IMG/VR virus record: IMGVR_UViG_3300030380_002559
Coordinates: 1-53,718 of that record
Strand: one strand, 5' to 3'
Length of the DNA stretch: 53,718 nt
Source: a virus
Lineage: Duplodnaviria; Caudoviricetes
The translations under genes and the position numbers were made by a program. The notes beneath the pieces were generated by a model. That model did not search any database. It worked only from the letters and a program-made list of their open reading frames with translations, and was not told the DNA's origin. Numbering within the stretch: the first letter of the stretch is position 1; every line of letters starts with the position of its first letter. Of the stretch, positions 17,036 through 34,689 are shown one piece after another.

Positions 17036-17389
17036 TTAGCCAACGATCAACATATCTGCTTCGATCAAACGCTTGCGGTAAAAAGTCAGGATCCGCTCGG
17101 GCGACTGGACAGTCGACAGCGAGCTGTCATCTGCGGCCATCGCGTCCAGCAGCTGGCGCTGGGTGGCGGAACCACCAAGCTTCTGCAGCTCGAACAAGAT
17201 CGCCTGTGCTTGCGCGGGCATCGGCTTAACCGCAAGCAGCTCGCCCGCATTTTCCGCCAGCCGCAACTTTACGTTATTGCTTCCTTTCGGCGACGGGGCA
17301 GGGATACCACAACGTGCGATCGACTTTGGATCGGCAGTCGGAGTAACAGTGGCACCGTTCGAGGACGGCTTAGAGAGCTTCTTAGTCAT
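17036..17389 (-). CDS. Putative winged-helix-like DNA-binding protein, paralog 2
   Basis: Start MTKKLSK after AAAGGA; clearly homologous to 17736..18146 (GIPAPxPKG...Q...IL..L..LGG.A.Q.QL.DAM...LSTVQ.P.RI.TFYRK). Confidence 0.65.
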   Translation of the reverse strand: MTKKLSKPSSNGATVTPTADPKSIARCGIPAPSPKGSNNVKLRLAENAGELLAVKPMPAQAQAILFELQKLGGSATQRQLLDAMAADDSSLSTVQSPERILTFYRKRLIEADMLIVG

Positions 17390-17502
17390 AGCGATTTCCT
17401 TTCGCTTCTGGGAAGGACAACTGCGTCCTTCCAACAAATTCATTCTTGCACATGCTCATAAGATAGTAAAGCTTTTATTTACTATTGTATGAACTTTTTT
17501 AA

Positions 17503-17735: not shown

Positions 17736-18146
17736 TCAAGCGTAGGTGATAAACCCATCTTCCATCAGCATCTTGCGATAGAAGGTATAAATGCGCTTCG
17801 GTGTCTGCACGGTCGAAAGACCTTGCTCTAGCATCGCATCAACAAGCTGCTCTTGCGAAGCCTCGCCACCTAGCGCCTCGAGCGTATCGAGAATGACGCC
17901 AGCCTGATTAGGAAGGCGACGGTTTTCAATCACCTTGGTAAGAAGCTTGACCTTACGACCGTTGAACCCTTTCGGAGCAGGGGCAGGAATGCCAGAGTTA
18001 CCGGCAGGATCGACAACCTTTAATGCTGCCTTCGCGGCACCGCGTACACCCATGCTGGGGGCAAGCAGAGAAATCGGATCAGACTTCTTGGTGGTGGTCT
18101 TCTTGGCCTTTGTGGAAGTGGCCTTCTTCTTAGCTGCTGCAGTCAT
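17736..18146 (-). CDS. Putative winged-helix-like DNA-binding protein, paralog 1 (Lys-rich N-tail)
   Basis: RBS AAGGAG; own promoter and terminator; homologous to 17036..17389 and 29705..30004. Confidence 0.7.
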   Translation of the reverse strand: MTAAAKKKATSTKAKKTTTKKSDPISLLAPSMGVRGAAKAALKVVDPAGNSGIPAPAPKGFNGRKVKLLTKVIENRRLPNQAGVILDTLEALGGEASQEQLVDAMLEQGLSTVQTPKRIYTFYRKMLMEDGFITYA

Positions 18147-18199
18147 AGCTTTCTCCTTTTATGACTGTTGTGGTCAGGCACCTCGCCTTAACCTTGCAA

Positions 18200-20752: not shown

Positions 20753-21004
20753 TCACTTTCTCCTTTGATTGCATAGCTTACTTCTTACTTTATTACTATA
20801 GTATGCAATACGCGGGAATAAAACGTCAAAGCGTTGCCTTTTACGCGCAAAATTATCAGTGATTGTCAAGTTACAAGCGAGACAGTGAACCACACCATTT
20901 TTCTTTGGCTCACGGAATGCAACCAAACAACGGGGGCATTGGTCAGCATCCAATGCCCCCTGAATAGTTCCGGGTTCACCAAAAGTAGGGAGCTTAGAAG
21001 CCAT
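20753..21004 (-). CDS. Small Zn-ribbon-like protein
   Basis: CPRC...CLAC; the C-terminal tail runs across the promoter. Confidence 0.5.
   Translation of the reverse strand: MASKLPTFGEPGTIQGALDADQCPRCLVAFREPKKNGVVHCLACNLTITDNFARKRQRFDVLFPRIAYYSNKVRSKLCNQRRK
20794..20829 (-). promoter_or_regulatory. Sigma70-type early promoter
   Basis: TTGACG-18 nt-CATACT followed by ATAGTAA. Confidence 0.65.
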
Positions 21005-22486: not shown

Positions 22487-23034
22487 GACGCGGCCCTCAT
22501 AAAGTCGCGCTGGTACTGATCAAGGATTACCTGAGTAAGCCTAACCGGAATCGTATCATCGAGATCTTTCGAAACGTACCTACCGAAATCAGTAAGGGAC
22601 CACTCAAGATCGCGAGACCCGGCAGAGATCGGACGCGAATTAATCAGTCCGATATCACGGGGACGACTAAGCACCGACGATAACGAATTATCGTGCATAT
22701 ACCCAATGGCCGAAGCCAGCTGAGAAGTCCGCAAGAACCCAAGCGACCGATTACGGTACAGACAAATCAAGACCTGCCAAGTACGATACATCGAACGCTG
22801 ATCATTAGAAACCCGATCATGAAGAAACGGAACTACCGTACCATCCTGATGAGCAACCGGAACAGGAAGCGTCTCCAGCTCAGCGAATTCTTCCCAAACG
22901 TCGGGATAATTCTGAGCAAGAAGAAAAGCAATCTGCTTCGAAGGGGTACGAAACTCTTTCTCTGCGATCGCCTTTAAGACGCGGTAAGTCGGAATTTCGA
23001 CAGCCACCGACTTATGGCTTTCAATGTTTGTCAT
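22483..23034 (-). CDS. Putative regulator (N-term ribbon-helix-helix-like, C-term winged HTH-like)
   Basis: KSVAVEIPTYRVLKAIAEKEFRTPSKQIAFLL; TSQLASAIG...SSVLSRPRDIGLI...WSLTDFG. Confidence 0.6.
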   Translation of the reverse strand: MTNIESHKSVAVEIPTYRVLKAIAEKEFRTPSKQIAFLLAQNYPDVWEEFAELETLPVPVAHQDGTVVPFLHDRVSNDQRSMYRTWQVLICLYRNRSLGFLRTSQLASAIGYMHDNSLSSVLSRPRDIGLINSRPISAGSRDLEWSLTDFGRYVSKDLDDTIPVRLTQVILDQYQRDFMRAAS

Positions 23035-23065
23035 TTAGCTTTCTCCCTCTATATGACAACGATGA

Positions 23066-23197: not shown

Positions 23198-23602
23198 TCA
23201 TCTTGCCTTCTCAAGGCTGACAGATACTGGATCAAAAAGATAGCCCTCTGTCAACAAATACCACGCCTCGCGCGACCCAGTGATATGCCAATATTTCAGG
23301 TTCTCAATTTCTTTTACTCGACTATTACGGTCGTGGATAACGACCCGCTGACCATCGTCCCAGATGAACCCCCAAGCACAGCGGAGATCCCAAGTGCTGT
23401 TTGGTTTCCACGTCCCACCGGCTGAGATACCTAAACCGTTAGGGAAATGGTCGGGGTGAATATCGGGGTGACCTAGGTACGACTCTAGGTCAGAAAACGA
23501 TGCCTCGCCGAATCCAATCAGCGGGTATTTAACGAATGTCTCAATGATAAGCTCCTGAGACATTGGCTTCGGGTCTAGCAGCATTTGTTTTAGTTTACCC
23601 AT
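23198..23602 (-). CDS. Hypothetical protein
   Basis: 134 aa; RBS GAGGAG. Confidence 0.6.
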   Translation of the reverse strand: MGKLKQMLLDPKPMSQELIIETFVKYPLIGFGEASFSDLESYLGHPDIHPDHFPNGLGISAGGTWKPNSTWDLRCAWGFIWDDGQRVVIHDRNSRVKEIENLKYWHITGSREAWYLLTEGYLFDPVSVSLEKAR

Positions 23603-23780: not shown

Positions 23781-23847
23781 TACTTTCTCCTTTTGATCTG
23801 GGTCCATCCATTGACGCCGAGATATCCGGATCTCGGCGTCCTCATCG

Positions 23848-24461: not shown

Positions 24462-24734
24462 TTATGAGTCGCGCTCTATTTGATTAGCACTGATAACGTG
24501 GATATCGCCTAACGAATACCCAATAGCGCTTCCTCGCCGACGCTCTCGTTCTATAGCAAAACCTATAGCTTGATCTTCAGTCGTAGCGTTGATTTTACGG
24601 ACACGTGTATACTCAGTGATAAGGATAACTTCATACAAAGCAGAGTTATATTTTTCGTGGTCCTTTAACTTATGTTTTTTGGAACGTGTAGTTTGATTCT
24701 GCGCCCCTCGTCCACCCCCTTGTACTTTCGGCAT
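24462..24734 (-). CDS. Hypothetical protein
   Basis: 90-aa ORF overlapping the 3' end of polA. Confidence 0.5.
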   Translation of the reverse strand: MPKVQGGGRGAQNQTTRSKKHKLKDHEKYNSALYEVILITEYTRVRKINATTEDQAIGFAIERERRRGSAIGYSLGDIHVISANQIERDS

Positions 24735-26676
24735 GGCTGATCACTTTCTCCATTTCTTTTGCGTCGCCCCAATTAGGTCCAAGGTCAACGTCTACTTTGA
24801 TTGGAACTGCTAACTCGACGCAGCTTTCCATAATCTCTTTGATCTTTTCAATCTGCTCTGGCGACTCAATCGAAAAATCTAATTCGTCGTGAACTTGGAT
24901 ATGCGGGACGATACCTTCATTGTAGAGTATCTGCATGGCCTTCTTCGTCATATCAGCCGCGCTTCCCTGAATGAGTCTATTCATTGCTTTATGGGTAAAT
25001 GCTCTCTTGATTGCGTTACCGTGTTCGGCATACGCTGTCTTGTGGTCCATAATTTTTCGTGTGCCAAATTGAGCTGGCTCCCACTTATCGAACCGGCACC
25101 GCCGCCCTAACAACGTGCGGATGCTTCCTTGTTTTGAAGCCCTCTGGACTGCTCGCTCCGATAACGCTTTTACAAACGGTACGCGGTCATGGTATTGCGC
25201 GAACAATTCTTTGCCTTCTTCTAATGTAAGTCCCAGACTATCGGAGAGCTTAGTAACACCCATTGAATAGAACAAACCAAGGTTGATGTTCTTAGCTTGT
25301 TTACGCGGTATCCCCGCCATATCGGCCACGATCTGGTGGAAGTCGGCATCGTCCTGTTGAAAGGCGTCTACGGCGTCTTGAGCGCCGCGTAGCTCCATCA
25401 AATGGGCGTAGTGTACCACGATCCGTGGCTCTTGTTGCGAATAGTCGAACGCGCCCCACTGACACCCTTCTTCTGGGATGAAGAGCGATCGAATCTTCGT
25501 ACCAATCTCAGGGTCACGTGCAGGTACTTGTTGTAAGTTCGGGTTTGAATAACTGAACCGACCTGTTACGGTACCGCCGTCGTCTGAGCGCAAGGGATGA
25601 AGTTCAGCATGAATACGACCATTAACTTGGTTTGACATTATCATCCCATCGATGAATGTCGTCCTAGCTTTATTCATCTTTCGCGCTTCAACAATTAGCT
25701 TGGGCATCTCGTGTTGATGGCCTTCTAACCAGCCTTGTTGAAATGATGGTGCGCCAAGTTCTGTACGCGGATAGTCTAAACTCAAGCCATCAAAGGCTTC
25801 CTGAATAGACTTATTTGCCCAAACCTCGATGTTCTTACCGCAAAGTTTCTTGATCTTTTGGAGAGCTGCCTCTTCTCTCGCACGAAACCATTTAGAAAGT
25901 TCATCTGCTTTATCTAAATCTACCCGTACACCACGCCACCGCATCTCGATAAGCAAGGGTGTTATCGAAGATTCAAGGTCGAAGATCGACCATAAATCTT
26001 GTCGGGTCATCTCACCCTTTTGCCATTCCCAAAGTTTAAGAGTTAATGCTGCGTCTTGCTCGGCGTATGGTCCTACATACATGGGAGGTAATTGATGTAA
26101 CCCCCCTTTAGCATCAACATTCCATGCTTCGGCGGCGTCACGTAAAAGGCTTTCGTCTTTCTTTTCTTGAAGATAGCTTTTACCAAGCGCGTTAAGAGCA
26201 TAGCTAAACCTATTTTCATCTATTAAAGGGGCAGACACCATTGTGTCAATGAGCCGGTTTTCTCGCAGAGTGATACCCTCCCTGCGCATCCACCCAATAT
26301 CGTAAGAAGCGTTGTGGCAAATAATATCTGCGCCACCGTCGATTTGAGCCTGTAACCAATTTTTGACGAGCTTCTCATTTAAGTTACCTCCTGCTTCATG
26401 CTTAACGGGTAGATAACCTGACCAAGATTCAGTAGCTACGGCGTAACCTACAACATGACCTTCGCCCCTTGCCCAACCCGCACCCTTCTCTTTAAGAGAA
26501 GGATCTCGCGTTTCAAGGTCGATACATATCTCCTTCGCTGCGGTTAGGTCAGGAAGATGTTCAGGTGGGGTCCAATCGCTATCAGGAGAGAACAAAGGCT
26601 GTTGAAGCGGGTTCTTTGGCATAGCTGGCTTCTTATCAGGTAGTGTCTGATAAGAGCTTACTATGTTATTAGTCAC
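24670..26676 (-). CDS. polA: DNA polymerase family A with 3'-5' exonuclease
   Basis: Exo motifs DLET, HNASYD, YAEQD; TGRFSYSNPNLQQVP; motif A DYSQQEPR; motif B KNINLGLFY; motif C VHDEL. Confidence 0.95.
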   Translation of the reverse strand: MTNNIVSSYQTLPDKKPAMPKNPLQQPLFSPDSDWTPPEHLPDLTAAKEICIDLETRDPSLKEKGAGWARGEGHVVGYAVATESWSGYLPVKHEAGGNLNEKLVKNWLQAQIDGGADIICHNASYDIGWMRREGITLRENRLIDTMVSAPLIDENRFSYALNALGKSYLQEKKDESLLRDAAEAWNVDAKGGLHQLPPMYVGPYAEQDAALTLKLWEWQKGEMTRQDLWSIFDLESSITPLLIEMRWRGVRVDLDKADELSKWFRAREEAALQKIKKLCGKNIEVWANKSIQEAFDGLSLDYPRTELGAPSFQQGWLEGHQHEMPKLIVEARKMNKARTTFIDGMIMSNQVNGRIHAELHPLRSDDGGTVTGRFSYSNPNLQQVPARDPEIGTKIRSLFIPEEGCQWGAFDYSQQEPRIVVHYAHLMELRGAQDAVDAFQQDDADFHQIVADMAGIPRKQAKNINLGLFYSMGVTKLSDSLGLTLEEGKELFAQYHDRVPFVKALSERAVQRASKQGSIRTLLGRRCRFDKWEPAQFGTRKIMDHKTAYAEHGNAIKRAFTHKAMNRLIQGSAADMTKKAMQILYNEGIVPHIQVHDELDFSIESPEQIEKIKEIMESCVELAVPIKVDVDLGPNWGDAKEMEKVISHAESTRGWTRGAESNYTFQKT

Positions 26677-26989
26677 CTTGACTAGTCCTGTTCCGCATCT
26701 CGGCCTCTACAAGAAAGAGATACCGACGTAAGTCACTGATATCGTCGACAAGACCCTCGGGCCGACGATCCTCATCCATAGCAGAAAAAATATCGTAATG
26801 ATGACCTAATACCTGTTTTTCAATACGATCCCATTTACGCGCCAACATCATGAAGGCACCTACACCGCCGCGCTGTTTCCAACTATCTCCGTACGACTCT
26901 TCTGCGCGTGTAAGCCCCGCGCAATCTTCATCAGCGATATTTTCTACGGTCTGTAGAATTTTACTTTTTTCTTTCGAGCCACTCGACAC
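26669..26989 (-). CDS. Nucleotide-modification-associated domain 1 (DUF1599/MazG-like dNTP pyrophosphatase fold)
   Basis: SYGDSW...RKWDRI...EGLVDDISDLRRY; context between the TS-like gene and polA. Confidence 0.6.
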   Translation of the reverse strand: MSSGSKEKSKILQTVENIADEDCAGLTRAEESYGDSWKQRGGVGAFMMLARKWDRIEKQVLGHHYDIFSAMDEDRRPEGLVDDISDLRRYLFLVEAEMRNRTSQGD

Positions 26990-27953
26990 AGGCTTTCCTC
27001 CAATCCGGTGATTCTATTTCACGGGCCTTATCTACAGCCTCGTTAATCATTTTTTCTTTCCAGAGCCACCAAGCCTCGACCATAGGTATTGCAGTCTTCG
27101 GAAAGATTTGGTTTTGGTATCCCACATGGGATTCTCCGTTGTGGAGCCAGTCGAAGAAGAGACAGACCTCGAGATCGAACTCTTCCCATTTATCGACGAG
27201 CGGGACCGGATAGATTTCATACGCTTCATAAGGGTCTGGATGAATCCCTTGAGGAAGTTTTTCATCGAGCGGCCTCCATACGTCTAAATATACATGCGGA
27301 TTACTACTGACTTGATAATAACGCCCAAGACCCATCCCCATGCAACTAGCTAAATATTCATGAACCATACTGAAGTGAACAGCATTCGCACCGTACATAC
27401 CCCAGATCAAATCATTCGATCTGTTCGTTACGGTCATATCTAAATAATAACCAAGGCTGGCTGGTCGACCGCGTAAGAAAACTTGCGTATTACAAGGAAC
27501 GTCCTTGGATGGAGAACCAAGGTCTTGAGTACAGTCCCACATCTGAAGTACAGCACGGCGGTCTAATGGGTTCTTGCGAAGTAAATCAATAACGGTAGAT
27601 AGCTGGTCACGTCCAAACCATTCAGTCCAGCGGTAACCGTAAGCACCATTTACTAGAACACCGTCATCCGAAAAGTCAGCCATCTTCTTAGCAAACATTG
27701 TCAGAGTCTTTAGATCTTGCCGACCAGCGATCATCCACAGCCCTTCAATAAAATGAAAGAAAGGGTTACAATTACGTTCTGCACTAAATAGAACACGCTC
27801 ATCCGGTCGCTCATAAACAGTCGTGAGTGGTGTCGGGAACGACAACACCGGACCATTGCGCGAGTCCGTTTCTAACAACTGACTACTCTCCCGCAAGTTC
27901 ATAACTGCGATCTGGAAAACCTCATTGACGTTTACGCCTTGTATAACTTTCAT
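26961..27953 (-). CDS. Thymidylate synthase-family enzyme, probably dUMP hydroxymethylase
   Basis: SRNG, EGLW, GAYGYRW, RRAVLQMWD, catalytic PC, RSND..WG...N (Asn indicates dUMP specificity), HVY. Confidence 0.8.
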   Translation of the reverse strand: MKVIQGVNVNEVFQIAVMNLRESSQLLETDSRNGPVLSFPTPLTTVYERPDERVLFSAERNCNPFFHFIEGLWMIAGRQDLKTLTMFAKKMADFSDDGVLVNGAYGYRWTEWFGRDQLSTVIDLLRKNPLDRRAVLQMWDCTQDLGSPSKDVPCNTQVFLRGRPASLGYYLDMTVTNRSNDLIWGMYGANAVHFSMVHEYLASCMGMGLGRYYQVSSNPHVYLDVWRPLDEKLPQGIHPDPYEAYEIYPVPLVDKWEEFDLEVCLFFDWLHNGESHVGYQNQIFPKTAIPMVEAWWLWKEKMINEAVDKAREIESPDWRKACVEWLERKK

Positions 27954-28777
27954 GGGTACTTTCCTCTTGGTGCGCCTTCTCCATTACGCACTCTTTCATA
28001 TTTATCAAACTCGCAAAGACTATGCTCGATATCGCGCATCTCTAATCGCGGTAGGAAATCTTTAGCTAAATATTCGGATGAGCATAGTAAAAGTTCGTGC
28101 ATCTCCTTCGTAAAATTATGCTTACGGCTCTTAAAGTTCAGAGGTCTACCGTATATGCGATTCAGACCGCGCATAGCACCGGGACCAGCATTAGCCCATG
28201 TATAGATGTCATCGGCCTCATCAAGAAAGTGTGTATGACGCAAGTCAGTAATTATTTCATATGACATGAAGGCTCCTAGGTACGGAAATTGCATAAACAA
28301 GTTCCATGAACCTCGGAGGTTGTTCGAGCGGATATCGTCGGCGAGTGTTTTGCGAAGGGGCCAAATGTTGTTAACGCACCAGATAACCCCATCGACCTTG
28401 TCCATTCCGTCGGGAGTTTTAATTATGTACCCACCGGTCACATATTTAGGTTGCTTCTTGATTTCTTCTCGGGCAATCTCTGGGTTCCAATCGACATGGA
28501 GATTATGGTCAAGAAGTGTTTGGCCTGTCTCTATTAGATTAAACCAACGAAAGATAACCGTGGCCATGAGAACATCGTCGTCCCCATTCAAGGGATCGCG
28601 CATCTTTTCCCTAAACCAAACGGTTGTCTTGTCGTTTTCTCTAAAGGGATTAGTAAAGCGATAGGTCTTTAAAATCTCGTCGTCAGTCCAATGGTTGCGG
28701 GAGAGGCCCATATCCTTCTTCAGAAAGATACGGTGCCTCTCCTCCATCCACCAAAAGAACCGTTCGATCGATTCCAT
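27950..28777 (-). CDS. aGPT-Pplase1 / 5-hmdU DNA kinase helical-domain family protein (thymidine hypermodification)
   Basis: ERH.I...WTDDEIL..YRFTN.FRE.DKTT...FRWFN...F.SYEI.TDL...GPGA.RGL...DIEHSLCEFDKY.R. Confidence 0.75.
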   Translation of the reverse strand: MESIERFFWWMEERHRIFLKKDMGLSRNHWTDDEILKTYRFTNPFRENDKTTVWFREKMRDPLNGDDDVLMATVIFRWFNLIETGQTLLDHNLHVDWNPEIAREEIKKQPKYVTGGYIIKTPDGMDKVDGVIWCVNNIWPLRKTLADDIRSNNLRGSWNLFMQFPYLGAFMSYEIITDLRHTHFLDEADDIYTWANAGPGAMRGLNRIYGRPLNFKSRKHNFTKEMHELLLCSSEYLAKDFLPRLEMRDIEHSLCEFDKYERVRNGEGAPRGKYP

Positions 28778-29616
28778 TACTTTTTCCTCAAGATCCAGTT
28801 GACATTGTTAGCTGTCTCCGGATACGCCGTGGCAAGAATCACACGTTGCCAGTGCTTATCGAACCGCCCTTGAATATCGTCTATCACGTGCTGTGGCCAG
28901 CGTAGATTAGCACGATGGTTACGCTTGAAGTTATTCATTTGCGTAAACGTGCCGTAGTGCCGTTCGATGGTATAGTATTTTTCGAGGAGTTCTTTGAGTT
29001 CTTCGTACCCCCATTCGTAGATGTGGTCTTTTGGGAGGATGTCGTTTGACCCATCATGGTTCGGCGTCGAGACATATGCAATGCCATTCGGACGGAGTTT
29101 ACGACACGATGCTTCGATCCAAGGTTCAATGAACTCCCTCCCCATGTGTTCGATTACTTCCGTTGTCATGAAGACATCCACGGACTCGTCCTCAACAGGA
29201 GGTTCAGGGTCCACGGTTAGGTCTTGGAGAACGATCCGGCCTTTATTACCTGTCATGGTTTTGAACCATTGATGTTCAGTAACTGGATCGTTATCATCTA
29301 CCCACCAATCGTCGAGACAAGCGGGATCAATATCCATACCGGTATAACTATTAACAATCTCCTCTTTACGAGAGACGAACGCCTTGTAGAGATAACGAAG
29401 CGTCCAAACTTCTCCGCATCCGATTTCAAGGATGTCAACAGGTCGACCAAGCTCTTTAGCTTTGCCCATAATTAACTGACCCATTTTACAAAACCGGCTG
29501 ATATGGGCCAATTCATCTGGTCGCCAGTTTGCTAACGTACCCGCACTGGCAATATCCATGCGGGTGTTTTTAGAGTTGTTCGCGTTTACCGCGAGTTTTC
29601 TACGAATAGAAGCCAT
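28777..29616 (-). CDS. Class I SAM-dependent methyltransferase-like protein
   Basis: Start MASIRR at 29616 after GGAGAGG; ILEIGCGE, YTGMDID, EVIEH, LRPNG...VSTPN. Confidence 0.8.
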   Translation of the reverse strand: MASIRRKLAVNANNSKNTRMDIASAGTLANWRPDELAHISRFCKMGQLIMGKAKELGRPVDILEIGCGEVWTLRYLYKAFVSRKEEIVNSYTGMDIDPACLDDWWVDDNDPVTEHQWFKTMTGNKGRIVLQDLTVDPEPPVEDESVDVFMTTEVIEHMGREFIEPWIEASCRKLRPNGIAYVSTPNHDGSNDILPKDHIYEWGYEELKELLEKYYTIERHYGTFTQMNNFKRNHRANLRWPQHVIDDIQGRFDKHWQRVILATAYPETANNVNWILRKK

Positions 29617-29638
29617 AAACCTCTCCGTCAGGTTAAAG

Positions 29639-29698
29639 GATGGGGAAACGACAGGCCGAACTAAGGAGAAAGCCAAAAACCCGCCGTTCCCCCGCATC
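29639..29698 (-). ncRNA. Long hairpin presenting an anti-Shine-Dalgarno loop
   Basis: 16-bp stem (5 G-U pairs, valid only on the minus strand); apical region GCUUUCUCCUU. Confidence 0.55.
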
Positions 29699-29704
29699 GA
29701 AAGA

Positions 29705-30127
29705 CTAGCTAGGAATCCGAATGTATTCCTTGTCGACCATCTCCCGATGATAGTGTTTGTAGACACGGTCTACAGGTTGTTTAGTTGGAAGCAGACCCTC
29801 CAACTTTTCCCAGAACATACCAATAGTGACGCCATCCTTACCAAACTCTTCGAGCTTTTCGAGGATAAGCATCATCTGACGCGGTCCTTTTTCTGGGTAT
29901 TTATTAAATACGATGGTCGTACCGACTTTCAGCCGACCAGTATTGGAGCGCCCTTGTGCGGCCTTTTTCTTAGCTTCGGTCACCATAACTGTTTCTTCAG
30001 ACATAATCTTCTTTCCTTTATGATACTCAGAAGGCCACCGATGGCGGGGCCAAGTTTTCTGTTCCCCAAAACCATGATCGGGAGAATATTTCCACGAATC
30101 GGGTCCGACTTGCATCCAACCACCCAT
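29705..30127 (-). CDS. Winged-helix-like protein, paralog 3 (alternative start at 30004)
   Basis: PRQMMLILEKLEEFG...LPTKQPVDRVYKHYHREMVDKEYI aligns with paralogs 1 and 2; RBSs precede both 30127 and 30004. Confidence 0.6.
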   Translation of the reverse strand: MGGWMQVGPDSWKYSPDHGFGEQKTWPRHRWPSEYHKGKKIMSEETVMVTEAKKKAAQGRSNTGRLKVGTTIVFNKYPEKGPRQMMLILEKLEEFGKDGVTIGMFWEKLEGLLPTKQPVDRVYKHYHREMVDKEYIRIPS

Positions 30128-30196: not shown

Positions 30197-31702
30197 CTAC
30201 ATAGAAAAATATTTATTGCTCATCGGTTGTACGATGTGAAGATTCTGTTTTGCTCGGGTAAGCCCCACATAAAAGACGCGAGTGTCGTCGTCTGGGTTCT
30301 TTTCAAAGCTTTTCCAAGTGCGGTGCGGAATATCTGTAAGCAGCAAAACATTATCTGCTTCGCCACCTTTTGCAGAATGTATGGTAGATAATTTTATTCG
30401 AGGTTTACTTGTGATCTTTTCGCCTCGGCGTAGTATTGAAAGCATATAACTACGTTCAGCGACAGAGAGCGCATCGAACATATCGTGCCAAATTAATGGT
30501 TCCGAAAGACCTGCCTTTTCCACGACCTCCGCGAGGGTGAAAGTTTCCGTTGGTGCGCAAGTATCAAAGACCTTCTTTTTCGAGCTCTTGATATACGCGA
30601 TCGCTGACGTTGCGTCCTCTGAATACGCAGAATGTCCACGGCGTAAACGCTCCCAAGCCTTGACTGAAGCAATCTTCTTTTCAGAAACAGAAGGATTGCC
30701 CTTCCTTTCAAAGTATACACCAAGGTTACGGCAGTGCGCGTCAAGTTCATTTAACAAATAATTAGACCGAGATAAGATTAACCACTCACCTGATGTAAGG
30801 TCCACATGCTCGAAACTTGCTTCGCTGACAACTTGTCCTTCCTCCTCCCGAGGATTCCAAGTTTTATTTGTTCGTGTCTTAACACGGCGTATCACTTTGT
30901 CGGCGATCCGGTGAACACTACGCGGGATGCGATAACTTTGATCCAACACTCGAGCGTTCCCCTCGCTCAAAGCAACAAGATGATCCACGTCTGCCCCTGC
31001 CCATCTAAAAATGGCTTGATCGTCGTCTCCGGCAATATAGACACGCTCCGAATTATTTGCCAAAAGCTCTACTAACCGCCACTGTAAAGGACTAAGGTCT
31101 TGCGCCTCGTCCACAAACATAACGTCTAGTTTAGGGGCCAACTGTTTTTGAACACAAAGATCAAGCATATCAGTAAAATCGTGTAAGCCTCTTGCTTGTT
31201 TAAATTGATACAGCCCTTTTTGGAACCGCTCTAACGCGAACCAGTCAATATCTTCGTCATAATGCTGGTGCCATTGCTCCCGTAACGGTACGCACCGGAG
31301 CCGCGACAAACCCTCGATAAAACTGAGCCGGTCGTCCTTCGATAGCATGGAAATCGAACCTTCTTCCATGTCCGAGCGACCAGATAATCGCAACCCCATA
31401 ATGTCGTTAAACTCGCGTAAGGAGTTACCGTTCAAAACAGAACTACGCGATAGACCTAACATTCGATGACAAAGGGAGTGTAACGTACGAAAATTCGGTA
31501 ACTCTTTCGAGCTTAACCCGAAGCGCTCCATCGTTCGGTCGCGCCCTTCCTCTGAAGCCTTCTTAGTAAAAGCAAAATACCCAATACGATCAGGCGGTGT
31601 GCCGTTTTGCATTTCTAATTCGATGAGGTTCAAGATCGTGGTAGTTTTGCCTGTACCGGGGGGACCAAGGATAATCGACCATGTGCTTGAGTCGCTGGCC
31701 AT
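30197..31702 (-). CDS. Superfamily 1 (UvrD/Rep-like) helicase
   Basis: GPPGTGKTT, AFT, TLHS, VDEAQD, GDDDQAIF, QSYR, STIHSAKGGE, YVGLTRA. Confidence 0.92.
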   Translation of the reverse strand: MASDSSTWSIILGPPGTGKTTTILNLIELEMQNGTPPDRIGYFAFTKKASEEGRDRTMERFGLSSKELPNFRTLHSLCHRMLGLSRSSVLNGNSLREFNDIMGLRLSGRSDMEEGSISMLSKDDRLSFIEGLSRLRCVPLREQWHQHYDEDIDWFALERFQKGLYQFKQARGLHDFTDMLDLCVQKQLAPKLDVMFVDEAQDLSPLQWRLVELLANNSERVYIAGDDDQAIFRWAGADVDHLVALSEGNARVLDQSYRIPRSVHRIADKVIRRVKTRTNKTWNPREEEGQVVSEASFEHVDLTSGEWLILSRSNYLLNELDAHCRNLGVYFERKGNPSVSEKKIASVKAWERLRRGHSAYSEDATSAIAYIKSSKKKVFDTCAPTETFTLAEVVEKAGLSEPLIWHDMFDALSVAERSYMLSILRRGEKITSKPRIKLSTIHSAKGGEADNVLLLTDIPHRTWKSFEKNPDDDTRVFYVGLTRAKQNLHIVQPMSNKYFSM

Positions 31703-33234
31703 TAGAACGGTTCTTCCTTCATTTCAGGCGTATCGAACGAACTATCCTGACCGGTATATTCTGGTATAAACCAGACGGTAATTCCTTTGCCTTTTACATG
31801 GAAGAAGTGATGACCTCCGCCAAGCTCACGAATACGCGCCGCTATATTATTACGGCCATAGTCCCGGAACTGTTGTCGACTGAAGTAATCAAGAAGGTCT
31901 TTTAGCCTGAAGTATGTTTTGCCCTCTTCTGTCCAAGGCTTACCTAAAAGCAGTTCGTCACGGCTTTGAGCTTGCGCTCGTTCGGTACAAAACGACTCCA
32001 GTAGCTCCATAAACTGACCTTCAACGGATACGTCTTTTGGCACTTCAATAATCGAAACAGCGTCGAGTAGCGACTGCATCGTATTACGCCAAGTATTTTG
32101 CCGTTGGGTCGGCGGCATAAAATTAAGAGCGTCCATACACCGACGTTGAAACTTGGTTTGATTTTGAAGCTCTTCTGTTGTTAATTCTAGCCGGTGGCCT
32201 TCTACGTCAAGAAACCAGATCGGAGGTTGAGAGTCCTGCTTTTGTAGATTACCAAACTGCGGTAAGCCGCCTGACGACCCTACACCGTAGTCACAAGTTC
32301 GACAAATCGCCGCGTTACAATATGCTGCGATGGGCTGATCATTACACTTATAGAGGTAGTCTTTATTATTCAAAGCACGAATAACAGTCAGCACTTCTTG
32401 AGCGCCTAATGGCGGCTTCATAAACTTAAAGTTAAATTCTTCGACTTTGCGTTCCCAAGTATCTTGAAACTTCTTACGAGCGAACACCCCAAGATCGAAT
32501 AAACCGTTGTTGCGCGTACCTTCAGGGAACCCCATTGTGCAAAGTGACCGTAAGCACGGCGGCGCGCCTTGTAAATCAGGGTCATCGTCGGCGTTATGGA
32601 TAGCTTGAGGTGATAAGTTTTCAAGTTCCCGGCGTGTGACACGCTTCGACTTAGCGTGCTCAATAAACTCTTCTAAATCGAGGATACCTTCGCCATCGTC
32701 ATTATGGCAGTAACGTGTTGAGGACGTACCGCCAAAATAGGGCATATTTAAAATATTGCCTCTATCGCCCTTTTCTAAAAGTAACTTTATTTGTTTTGGA
32801 AAAATCTCAGCGGTGCCGTAACCAAGAGCAGACGCGATTTCTTTTAATTTACCCTGCATTATCGACGCGGGTACAGACTCCGATACAAAACAATAAACAT
32901 GTGCGCCGCCCGATTTAGAACGCGCAACAACAAATGGAAGTTCGTTTCTTTTAACCAACCGCTCAACTAAATCGTCGTGTTTAAGAGGGTAGGTATCAAT
33001 GTCGATAGCCCCCCAAACACAACTGTTATCTTCCCTAATAGGTACGATCCCAAGGGACTCTTGACCGGTTAAATGATTTTCCCATAATTCAAGTAAACGA
33101 TCGTCATCTAAATCTTCTGAAACGACACGATATTGACCTTTCTGTTTACCGGGACCGTTATCCTCATTAGGACGATAAGAGCCATACGCCAATCGTAAGC
33201 CCGAAAATAATTCTGCAAAATCTTTTGCCGCCAT
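31702..33234 (-). CDS. DNA primase (archaeo-eukaryotic primase superfamily-like)
   Basis: WGAIDID, RSKSGGAH, EIFPKQ, GNILNMPY; PPC...EGTRNN PriCT-like region. Confidence 0.8.
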   Translation of the reverse strand: MAAKDFAELFSGLRLAYGSYRPNEDNGPGKQKGQYRVVSEDLDDDRLLELWENHLTGQESLGIVPIREDNSCVWGAIDIDTYPLKHDDLVERLVKRNELPFVVARSKSGGAHVYCFVSESVPASIMQGKLKEIASALGYGTAEIFPKQIKLLLEKGDRGNILNMPYFGGTSSTRYCHNDDGEGILDLEEFIEHAKSKRVTRRELENLSPQAIHNADDDPDLQGAPPCLRSLCTMGFPEGTRNNGLFDLGVFARKKFQDTWERKVEEFNFKFMKPPLGAQEVLTVIRALNNKDYLYKCNDQPIAAYCNAAICRTCDYGVGSSGGLPQFGNLQKQDSQPPIWFLDVEGHRLELTTEELQNQTKFQRRCMDALNFMPPTQRQNTWRNTMQSLLDAVSIIEVPKDVSVEGQFMELLESFCTERAQAQSRDELLLGKPWTEEGKTYFRLKDLLDYFSRQQFRDYGRNNIAARIRELGGGHHFFHVKGKGITVWFIPEYTGQDSSFDTPEMKEEPF

Positions 33235-33299: not shown

Positions 33300-34094
33300 T
33301 TAGAAAGGAACTTCGTCGTTGATTTTGTCAGAAGATGCTCCTCCGGCCTCTGGATCTTTAGCCTGTACCTCACCCGACTTAATCATCTTTAGGAAATTAG
33401 CGCCCTCAAGAATCATGTCGCGGTTTGAGGCTTGGCCTTCAAGACCAATCGACCAACCGTACCAAGAACCACGGTCGTTCTGCTCAGCTACCGTCTTCAA
33501 ACGATATTTGAACAAGAACATAGGAGCTTCGACCATTGCTCCAGCGGAGTTTTTGACGCGCCGCTGTTTCATTTGGCTAACCCACTTACGAGCCTTTGAA
33601 AGCTGGGTGGACGTCATCGCGATAACCGCTTGCGTCCACTCACTTTCATCTCCATTACAGATCATGACGTAGAATTGTGCAGTCTCGGCAATGTAGTTAC
33701 CGTTGCTCAATACGAACTGACCGCGCTCATTCTTCGTAGTCTGCGTTAAGATATCTCGACTATCATGAGTGTTAATAAGGCCACCCCCGCTTTCACGCGG
33801 TGCCCACTCGAGATACTTCTTATTGTAGTAGCAAGGAACTACAATAAGACCCTCATCCCCATCCGTCGCCTCACCGGTGACAGTATTGAAGATATTACCC
33901 TGCTCAGCACCTTTGACATATTTACCGTCATTCTTGTTGAGCTGTGGGCTGAGAGCTTGTAACAGCTGAAGGAACGGAATGGCAAAGTCATCAGAGGACG
34001 TATCCTCCAAGCCTGTGCCAAGCGACAATAGATCGTCGTCTATTACTGCGACTGCACCGCCGCCGTTCTTTACTGCAACTTCGTTTTTCGCCAT
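33300..34094 (-). CDS. Single-stranded DNA-binding/annealing protein (putative)
   Basis: IPFLQLLQALSPQ...MTSTQL...NDRGSWYGW; acidic tail ending DEVPF; RBS AGGAGG. Confidence 0.65.
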   Translation of the reverse strand: MAKNEVAVKNGGGAVAVIDDDLLSLGTGLEDTSSDDFAIPFLQLLQALSPQLNKNDGKYVKGAEQGNIFNTVTGEATDGDEGLIVVPCYYNKKYLEWAPRESGGGLINTHDSRDILTQTTKNERGQFVLSNGNYIAETAQFYVMICNGDESEWTQAVIAMTSTQLSKARKWVSQMKQRRVKNSAGAMVEAPMFLFKYRLKTVAEQNDRGSWYGWSIGLEGQASNRDMILEGANFLKMIKSGEVQAKDPEAGGASSDKINDEVPF

Positions 34095-34104
34095 AACTTA
34101 CCTC

Positions 34105-34689
34105 CTATTTAGCGATCTTCGATTTAAAGCCGGTGTACAGACCAAGCAAGTCGACAGGTAAATCTGTCCCTTTTTCAATCTGTTCTTTAGCAAAAGCCTT
34201 CAGGGTTGAGTGGTGAACCGCTTCTTTGGTTTCGATCTTAATACCACGAGCTTGCAGTACGTCGACCGCAACCTTCCAGTTATCATCACTTTTACCAAAT
34301 TTTGCTGTTACTTCCCTTTTGATGATGTCACCAAAACCATTGTCGACGAGCCACATATAGGCTTCTTCGGCTTTAGCTTTCGTGATATGGGCAGTAACAA
34401 ACGGTTCGGCTTTCACCCTAGAGCCATCTGCCAAACGTATCTCAGATACGCCAGCTTCGGCCAAAGCATCAGGAAGGTCGTGTTCTTGAACGACACGTAG
34501 TTGTTCCTTCTTCGCTTTCAGCTGATCCTCGAGTTCGGCTACACCGCGCTCAAGGTCGAGTTGTTTATTTGCCAACTCAGCAATGCGACGGACTTCACCG
34601 TCGGTTGCCTCGACTGCTAGGGTGTTTATCGCCTCGCCCCCGAGGATATCGTCAAGGTTATCGTTAACCAAAGTTTTCTCCTTTTTCAA
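34105..34689 (-). CDS. Conserved phage replication-module protein
   Basis: Coiled coil, then LPDAL...LADG...WLVDNGFGDIIK...VHHSTLKAF. True start is probably the TTG near 34671 after AAGGAG. Confidence 0.65.
   Translation of the reverse strand: MKKEKTLVNDNLDDILGGEAINTLAVEATDGEVRRIAELANKQLDLERGVAELEDQLKAKKEQLRVVQEHDLPDALAEAGVSEIRLADGSRVKAEPFVTAHITKAKAEEAYMWLVDNGFGDIIKREVTAKFGKSDDNWKVAVDVLQARGIKIETKEAVHHSTLKAFAKEQIEKGTDLPVDLLGLYTGFKSKIAK

Follow-up and report, generated by a model that had tools for sequence, protein, structure and literature searches.

The phage recorded in IMG/VR as IMGVR_UViG_3300030380_002559 (Duplodnaviria; Caudoviricetes) carries, in the middle of a replication and thymidine-hypermodification operon of about 10 kb, a stable RNA hairpin that separates two genes. 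The record as a whole, linear and 53,718 bases long (CheckV completeness estimate 90%), is the window analysed here, and nearly all of its genes lie on the minus strand. The hairpin (29693-29642, minus strand) stands directly downstream of the gene of a 140-amino-acid (aa) protein and ahead of a methyltransferase-like gene. On present evidence it belongs to a known kind, the intercistronic mRNA hairpin, and carries a lineage-specific loop complementary to ribosome-binding sites (RBSs). We give a probability of roughly one half to the reading that we favour, in which the hairpin would be an intercistronic mRNA stabiliser, a processing site or a weak attenuator, read through by RNA polymerase; the CU-rich loop, which resembles an anti-Shine-Dalgarno (anti-SD) sequence, is then a lineage-specific feature with a putative role.

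A stable and strand-specific hairpin

The 140-aa gene (29705-30127, minus strand, as delimited in the list of open reading frames (ORFs)) and the methyltransferase-like gene (28777-29616, minus strand) are 88 nt apart. The first eleven of these (29694-29704) separate the stop codon from the stem, after which the arms GGGGGAACGGCGGGTT (29678-29693) and GGCCTGTCGTTTCCCC (29642-29657) make 16 contiguous pairs, five of them G-U, around a 20-nt loop (29658-29677). Four G-C pairs followed by one G-U form the base of the stem. In the minimum free energy (MFE) structure the 16-bp stem is prolonged, past a 3x1 internal loop, by a weak inner stem of 4 bp, bringing the stacked pairs to about 20 and leaving UUCUCCUU apical. 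Beyond the stem come an A/U-rich linker of 15 nt, ATCCTTTAACCTGAC (29627-29641), whose U-tract is poor (tail score 1.0), and the start of the methyltransferase-like gene (29614-29626), with the SD sequence GGAGAG (29626-29621), a spacer and the ATG (29616-29614). The 15 nt from stem to SD leave no space for a promoter, so that RNA polymerase must read through the hairpin. An earlier note on this stretch had described the 16-bp minus-strand stem and a loop 11-mer at 29673-29663, and all of its sequence statements proved correct.

Folded alone, the 52-nt hairpin reaches -28.8 kcal/mol against a shuffle mean of -15.6 (z = -5.36), and none of 200 shuffles is as stable. Within 141 nt of context the minus strand scores z = -2.06, equalled by 6 of 200 shuffles. 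The plus strand is unfolded (z = +0.81, with 161 of 200 shuffles equal), the G-U pairs of the minus strand being C-A mismatches there. Since the minus strand folds and the plus strand does not, the feature is strand-specific and belongs to the RNA level. When the window was scanned for uninterrupted stems (at least 10 bp, G-U allowed, loops of 3-45), the hairpin had the lowest energy among 255 stems on the minus strand and 170 on the plus strand.

Rfam gave no match at the gathering threshold in the window and 15 related loci, and a permissive scan of 29450-29850 returned chance-level rows alone (E 5.6 and 7.1). The segment 28700-30700 had zero nucleotide matches in the phage collection searched. 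No RNA run among those listed contained the region, and its sequence words, counted without read alignment, were next to absent from two metatranscriptome runs of the same samples.

The heptamer CCCCATC is over-represented in the window on both strands (11 sites against 3.9 expected, a count reached by 0 of 100 shuffles), and three minus-strand copies directly follow strong hairpins (16700, 22417, 29645). As a post-hairpin motif it was dropped, its five minus-strand contexts having no coherent longer motif in common.

A hairpin at fixed spacing in related phages

The junction was compared in 38 loci with the methyltransferase gene and in loci with the 140-aa gene from viral contigs (14) and metagenome contigs (19); these yielded 28 distinct complete junctions with a homolog of the 140-aa gene, and 32 distinct downstream sequences in which stem spacing was read. 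One to three strong hairpins stand directly after the stop codon of the 140-aa gene in 25 of the 28 junctions. A strict stem finder placed the first stem at +10 to +12 nt past the stop in 22 of the 32 downstream sequences; of the remaining ten, two have their first stem at +15 and +25, four lack a hairpin, and in four the finder missed hairpins that RNAfold shows. On the other side, the last stem lies 9-15 nt from the SD of the next gene, whichever gene that is. In L001/L002/L055, L009, L059, L060 and L064 (L numbers designate loci) an extra small ORF, starting MEIKLDDD or MNIKLDDN, is found between the hairpin or hairpins and the methyltransferase gene, which means that the hairpin is linked to the 3' end of the gene before it rather than to the methyltransferase. 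Between clades, hairpin sequences and loops are unrelated, and hairpins that keep the same spacing with unrelated sequences and loops point to a structural role at the level of the family. By sequence comparison, then, the conserved feature is a hairpin at the 3' end of the 140-aa gene with fixed spacing; it is neither the loop nor the link to the methyltransferase. The hairpin junction is also a site of gene gain and loss.

The closest clade comprises four distinct sequences: the window (the same as L054), L066, L056 and L001 (the same as L002 and L055), the 140-aa protein being 89% identical to that of the window in L066, 79% in L001 and 74% in L056. In this clade 96.9% of the stem cells pair, whereas sliding the 3' partner leaves no more than 64% paired. 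A one-sided change through G-U is seen at six pairs and a two-sided change at one; the sample being four sequences, 82 of 500 shuffles maintain the stem equally well. In the loop, the core CTTTCTCC (29665-29672, inside the 11-mer 29663-29673) is invariant in all four sequences while its flanks differ by substitutions and indels, and the full 11-mer is kept in three of the four. L066 forms another small inner stem and yet presents UUCUCC at the apex of its loop, CTTTCTCCAG. A scan of viral contigs with a pattern for the 5' arm returned 47 stretches, two of them the L001 and L002 contigs and the rest unrelated. The earlier note had tied its proposal to conservation of the loop in related phages: this holds for the core within the four clade sequences and fails in all other relatives, which carry unrelated hairpins. 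Judged from these alignments, the anti-RBS core CUUUCUCC is kept in the closest clade only.

Could the hairpin have no selected function at all, being a recombination scar or hot spot at a plastic junction, with a coincidental loop match? Such an origin would fit the inserted extra ORFs and modules that replace one another, occur in several copies (up to three in L010) or are missing. We consider it very improbable, because spacing is conserved on both sides, stems are kept by compensatory and G-U changes, and in nearly all relatives the fold is extremely stable and confined to one strand. A dispersed repeat or mobile element was rejected as the source: 11 hairpin modules, searched with BLAST against six genomes, matched at the orthologous junction alone and are thus single-copy.

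In L003, L007, L010, L018, L058-L060 and L063-L068 the junction holds larger modules, one to three in tandem. Several of these share an inner element, GGGGTTACTAC followed by a small variable hairpin and GTGTATGAACTTCAC, with compensatory changes in the small hairpin. Rfam gave no match for the larger junction modules of these other clades, which may represent an undescribed structured RNA.

An intercistronic hairpin that would punctuate the operon mRNA

The position of the hairpin suggests how it could work, since it would start just past the footprint of a ribosome terminating on the 140-aa gene. Folding of a hairpin behind a terminating ribosome is reported to require about 10-15 nt of free RNA beyond the A site (PMC4824070), and with its 11-nt spacing the hairpin can therefore fold while the upstream gene is being translated. 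Once folded, it would form a barrier to 3'-5' exonucleases, a site for RNase III or RNase E, or both, and at most a weak attenuator. In either case the upstream mRNA would finish in the hairpin and be protected by it, and the dosage and mRNA stability of the replication genes would thereby be uncoupled from those of the modification and PolA genes. Intercistronic stabiliser and processing hairpins of this sort include REP-type hairpins and those of the puf operon. The linker sequence UUUAAC that follows the stem would suit RNase E.

The early RNase III signals of phage T7 offer a close parallel. Like them, the hairpin is a stable stem-loop between the cistrons of an operon, read through by the polymerase, strand-specific and situated at the boundary of functional modules; its predicted stack would amount to about two helical turns. 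In sequence it is unrelated to the T7 sites, and it matches no Rfam family. T7 RNase III sites typically contain an internal loop, whereas the lower stem of the hairpin is uninterrupted. An idealised RNase III substrate is given as 22 bp, and the early polycistronic mRNA of T7 as carrying five such signals (PMC3867540); the stack of 16 plus 4 bp comes close to that length.

A regulated intrinsic terminator would share several of these features. It would stop most transcription past the replication genes until an antitermination factor, of phage or host, later admits the polymerase to the modification and PolA block. The hairpin resembles Rho-independent terminators in its GC-rich stem (16 bp, -28.8 kcal/mol), GC-rich at the base in particular, placed after a stop codon at a module boundary, and the spacing from the stop codon would permit folding behind a terminating ribosome, by the distances given in PMC4824070. 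A T-run follows in several relatives (L014, L022, L015, L025, L009), and canonical U-tails occur in a minority of them: tail scores reach 3.8-4.3 in L014 and L022 and 2.3 in L009, and L015 and L025 have the tail TTTTTATTTT. The window itself differs. Its tail after the stem, ATCCTTTAACCT, scores 1.0, most relatives score at most 1.6 with the T-run offset by ACC(C), and the U-tract does not begin within 0-2 nt of the stem. The 20-nt loop compares with about 3-8 nt in Rho-independent terminators, and the site is not among the 22 terminator-like sites of a consensus scan. Moreover, the genes downstream have no promoter of their own and no space for one, so that essential functions would rely on read-through. 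For the window we therefore hold a regulated terminator to be rather unlikely.

Several observations weigh against the stabiliser or processing reading. The window's ordinary terminators are short-loop hairpins with U-tails, as found between early genes by the consensus scan (23174-23155, 20960-20932 and 17727-17704, minus strand), so that the hairpin belongs to a different class and its function is putative. Three of the 28 junction types, all AT-rich, have a 9-nt gap and no hairpin. In addition, the loop core may be under more constraint than a pure structural role would impose. At four-fold degenerate sites of the methyltransferase gene, pairwise identity in the closest clade is 68-81% and 56 of 105 sites are invariant in all four sequences; eight consecutive invariant neutral sites would then occur with P of about 0.0065, or about 0.085 once 13 loop windows are allowed for. 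We regard this as suggestive, not decisive.

Should punctuation be its only role, the hairpin would be an ordinary yet clear example of how uncultured marine phages partition long operons by replaceable hairpins. Punctuation hairpins at fixed spacing would also be helpful for annotating transcription units in metagenomic phage genomes.

Complementarity of the loop to early ribosome-binding sites

The earlier note had drawn attention to the hairpin for its loop, whose 11-mer GCTTTCTCCTT (29673-29663) is the exact complement of AAGGAGAAAGC at 18148-18158 (minus strand), in the leader of an early gene. We confirmed this match and the near-matches in other leaders. With one mismatch, AAGGAGAAAGC recurs at 20755-20765, 23038-23048, 23782-23792 and 34673-34683; allowing up to one mismatch, the window has six sites in all where 1.33 would be expected, a number not reached in any of 100 shuffles. 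AAGGAGAAA is present in the leader of gene 21818 (genes of this region are named by their start coordinate, namely 18146, 20751, 21818, 23034, 23780 and 24147, all on the minus strand). Among the 11-mers of the transcribed strand, 1.6% have an exact complementary site, 0.14% have at least five sites within one mismatch and 0.03% have both. An RBS of the form A(A/G)GGAGAAA is common to seven genes, six of which are promoter-proximal early genes or the operon leader, and the loop includes the anti-SD-like CUCCUU. Much of the match thus arises because a CU-rich, anti-SD-like loop meets a recurrent AAGGAGAAA-type RBS. Reading AAGGAGAAAGC as an RBS of the plus strand was rejected, there being no start codon within about 20 nt downstream.

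Duplex energies were computed for the loop against 72 translation initiation regions (TIRs). The best belong to genes 23034 (-21.7 kcal/mol), 18146 (-20.3) and 24147 (-19.6). Counting G-U pairs, complementarity is longer than the earlier note had claimed: 13 bp with the 18146 leader and 15 bp, including two G-U, with the 23034 leader (23048-23034). Composition-preserving shuffles of the loop equal the best duplex energy in 3% of 300 trials. Twenty-three of the 72 TIRs pair with the loop at -12 kcal/mol or better, a count that shuffled loops reach in 3.3% of 300 trials. The match exceeds that of a random 11-mer, and the signal is real but moderate, in a finding that had been selected for its complementarity. 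Anti-SD motifs show no enrichment in intergenic regions, where CTCC occurs 1.97 times per kb against 1.84 in coding sequence.

Two leaders stand out as candidate targets in trans: that of a 136-aa early gene (18140-18167, minus strand), which contains the exact 11-nt complement at 18148-18158, and that of a 183-aa early gene (23028-23059, minus strand), which has the best energy of the 72 TIRs. Both expose the SD (AAGGAG or AGGGAG) in a loop whose closing stem contains the start codon, in agreement with the earlier note's description of looped RBSs, which holds for at least two early leaders. With GGA in their hairpin loops, these leaders also resemble binding sites of CsrA and RsmA. The SD-in-loop design is kept in G001, the whole genome record of L001, and for the 23034 leader also in G002, a second relative; in the leader of the 18146 homolog of G001, an A-to-G change retains the stem as U-G. 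The 136-aa protein, whose RBS is the exact complement of the hairpin loop, is itself a paralog of the 140-aa protein encoded upstream of the hairpin.

Possible pairing in trans

The complementarity invites a mechanism in which apical UUCUCCUU would base-pair with SD loops in the leaders of sigma70-driven early genes (23034, 18146, 20751, 23780, 21818) and block 30S binding. The hairpin would act either inside the operon mRNA or as a decay-resistant fragment, and early genes would be lowered upon transcription of the replication operon. We consider this alternative unlikely, and the silencing interpretation of the earlier note partly supported at the sequence level. On its side are the exact 11-nt complement, the 13- and 15-bp duplexes and their rarity among shuffled loops, the SD-in-loop form of the target leaders, and a core that stays invariant in the four clade sequences, UUCUCC being apical also in L066, while stem and loop flanks change. 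Binding of SD sequences by unpaired C-rich loop motifs is, moreover, an established mechanism: the C-rich loops of the Staphylococcus aureus RNAs RNAIII and RsaE are described as binding SD sequences and preventing initiation (PMC2790875, PMC2837412).

The whole records of five relatives (G001-G005) bear on both sides of the question. G001, which has the same loop, carries five forward AAGGAGAAAG sites at gene starts besides the loop itself, and 0 of 100 shuffles of its loop match its own TIRs as well. At gene starts of the others, which all carry other hairpins, AAGGAGAAAG occurs once in G002, once in G003, not at all in G004 and twice in G005. The loops of other clades show no excess complementarity to their own TIRs over shuffles (fractions 0.14-0.82), and the loop is absent from every one of these clades though the junction hairpin is kept. 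Furthermore, the homologs of genes 20751 and 23034 retain AAGGAGAAAG or AGGGAGAAAGC in G002 and G003, where the loop is lacking; the RBS motif therefore predates the loop and does not depend on it.

Compensatory change between the loop and the early RBSs, for which the earlier note had called, was found at one position. The base after AAGGAGAAAGC in the RBS of the 18146 homolog is U in the window and A in G001, and the loop base that faces it is G and U, respectively; the cognate pairs form (G-U in the window, U-A in G001) and the crossed pairs would not. Cognate duplexes reach -20.3 and -21.1 kcal/mol against -18.3 and -18.2 for the crossed ones, a single covariation event with an advantage of about 2-3 kcal/mol for the cognates. 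A single covarying pair is expected by chance in roughly a third of cases, and the window and G001 count as one evolutionary observation because they share loop and RBS by descent. The remaining difficulties are that the finding was picked for its complementarity, that a helix of 13-15 bp is impossible within a closed 20-nt loop unless the structure rearranges, and that anti-SD motifs are not enriched between genes.

The hairpin is like RNAIII and RsaE in having, in its loop, an unpaired pyrimidine-rich motif complementary to the SD regions of several mRNAs. A further likeness may be that the motif is kept in all four sequences of its closest clade (P about 0.085) while the helices vary; the other clades lack it. 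It differs in being embedded in an operon of a lytic-type marine phage, where it is known from sequence, and in its motif, CUUUCUCC and not UCCC, which is lineage-specific. Candidate noncoding RNAs derived from mRNA untranslated regions (UTRs) are reported from virulent phages by long-read transcriptomics (PMC10914365). In the literature searched, outside which lay subscription journals and supplements, we found no example of a phage anti-SD hairpin that controls early genes or early-middle switching.

The two readings can be joined, and we hold the combination to be doubtful, slightly more so than pairing in trans as such. In one lineage of marine phages, a punctuation hairpin would have been co-opted as an anti-RBS riboregulator, its CUUUCUCC loop kissing SD-in-loop early leaders in an RNA-only switch from early to middle expression, with a second element at 23191-23155 (described below) acting on the RBS of the 183-aa gene. 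The sigma70-driven targets would include the paralog of the gene upstream of the hairpin, and their shut-off would set in as transcription of the replication genes rises. If this were true, a lytic phage would silence its own early mRNAs by an operon-embedded anti-SD hairpin, with no dedicated small RNA (sRNA) gene, through a mechanism already documented for bacterial sRNAs.

Possible pairing in cis, and the primase junction

The earlier note had also suggested that the loop could pair in cis, as a pseudoknot, with the methyltransferase SD (GGAGAG, 29626-29621) and so limit translation of that gene. UUUCUCC can pair with GGAGAGG through five Watson-Crick and two G-U pairs, the SD context is common to the window, L066 and L056, and the 15-nt linker is long enough in principle. 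The comparison with other sites was unfavourable to the idea: the duplex reaches -12.3 kcal/mol, which places the methyltransferase TIR outside the 14 best of the 72, and in L001 the gene after the hairpin is another one, in another SD context. No anti-SD loop precedes the methyltransferase gene in other clades. In the closest clade its RBS, GGAGAG, is less complementary to the loop than the AGGAGAAA(G/T) form of most other clades, which counts in favour of targets in trans. In 1 of 28 distinct junctions the 5' flank pairs with the SD flank better than in shuffles at the 0.05 level, and an outer helix joining the 5' flank to the SD at the methyltransferase junction scores -7.7 in the window against a shuffle mean of -9.1. 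We rate cis gating below pairing in trans and regard it as improbable.

Masking of an SD does seem to occur elsewhere in the same operon, and this lends the cis gate some plausibility. At the junction of the gp34-like and primase genes, a hairpin of the same style is present in all six genomes compared. In the window it lies at 33289-33261 (minus strand), enclosed by a helix between 33310-33298, the last gp34-like codons with the stop, and 33253-33241, which holds the primase SD. This outer helix is predicted in four of the six genomes, with a compensatory change from U-A to C-G in G001, and the arrangement looks like classical translational coupling by SD sequestration. It shares with the hairpin under study the operon, the order of stop codon, hairpin and SD, and a CU-rich anti-SD-like sequence nearby. 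There, however, the end of the upstream ORF serves as the anti-SD, in an outer helix around the hairpin, whereas that of the hairpin under study, which has no detectable outer helix, sits in the apical loop and would not be released by the upstream ribosome.

The c4 RNA of phage P1, an antisense RNA processed from the same operon as its target, is a further point of comparison. It acts in trans and is described as repressing synthesis of the Ant proteins (PMC8546580). Both are phage RNA elements upstream in an operon that could mask RBSs; pairing of the hairpin with the adjacent downstream RBS is weak (-12.3 kcal/mol), and the targets proposed for it lie in other transcription units.

The operon and the early region

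Family searches identified the genes around the hairpin, all on the minus strand. In the direction of transcription, those upstream are a Pam3 gp33-like gene (34105-34689), a Pam3 gp34-like gene (33300-34094), an AEP primase (31702-33234) and a UvrD-like helicase (30197-31702), before the 140-aa gene. The S-adenosylmethionine (SAM)-methyltransferase-like gene (family match Methyltransf_23/11) opens the thymidine-modification and PolA block; it is followed by a 5-hydroxymethyldeoxyuridine (5-hmdU) DNA kinase (27950-28777; PF18723, E 8e-41), a thymidylate-synthase-like gene (26961-27953) and PolA (24670-26676). The PolA protein is 49-55% identical to those of HTVC023P-type pelagiphages and allied uncultured phages, and 41% identical to those of PaMx11/Ab18-like Pseudomonas phages. 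The thymidine-hypermodification cluster (26961-29616) lies directly upstream of PolA, and judged from its genes the phage DNA probably contains modified thymidine.

The 140-aa protein has no match in Pfam or PHROG. Its AlphaFold model has a confidence (pLDDT) of 68 overall and of about 80-86 at residues 70-140; Foldseek gave no match at E<=0.001, the best weak row being a winged helix. The C-terminal half is predicted to be helix-rich and winged-helix-like. In a BLASTP comparison within a 10-protein database, the protein is 27% identical over 75 aa (E 3e-5) to the 136-aa early protein (17736-18146), of which it is, by this similarity, a distant paralog. The 136-aa protein is in turn 50% identical to the adjoining 135-aa protein (17036-17443), both on the minus strand.

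Upstream of small early genes, a promoter-like motif, (T)ACTATA(G/A)TAA(T/G), follows -35 hexamers of the TTGAC type; the motif is shared by sites at 24440-24411, about 23100, about 21848, 20829-20800 and 18236-18207 (minus strand). Together with the short-loop, U-tailed terminators between these genes, the motifs suggest that the region from PolA to the terminase comprises several early transcription units of host sigma70 type.

Another anti-SD element, CTTTCCTCC (23191-23183, minus strand), occupies part of the 3' UTR of the gene at 23198-23602, directly 5' of a canonical terminator (23174-23155) with the tail CTTTTTATC; sRNAs derived from 3' UTRs are arranged in this way. With the RBS of the gene that follows (23034; GAGGGAGAAAGC, target 23048-23038) it can form 6 and 5 bp separated by a one-base bulge. 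On the transcribed strand CTTTC(C)TCC occurs at two sites only, in this element and in the hairpin loop. Both the core UUCCUCCC and the terminator persist in G001 and in G002, the latter showing compensatory changes in the stem.

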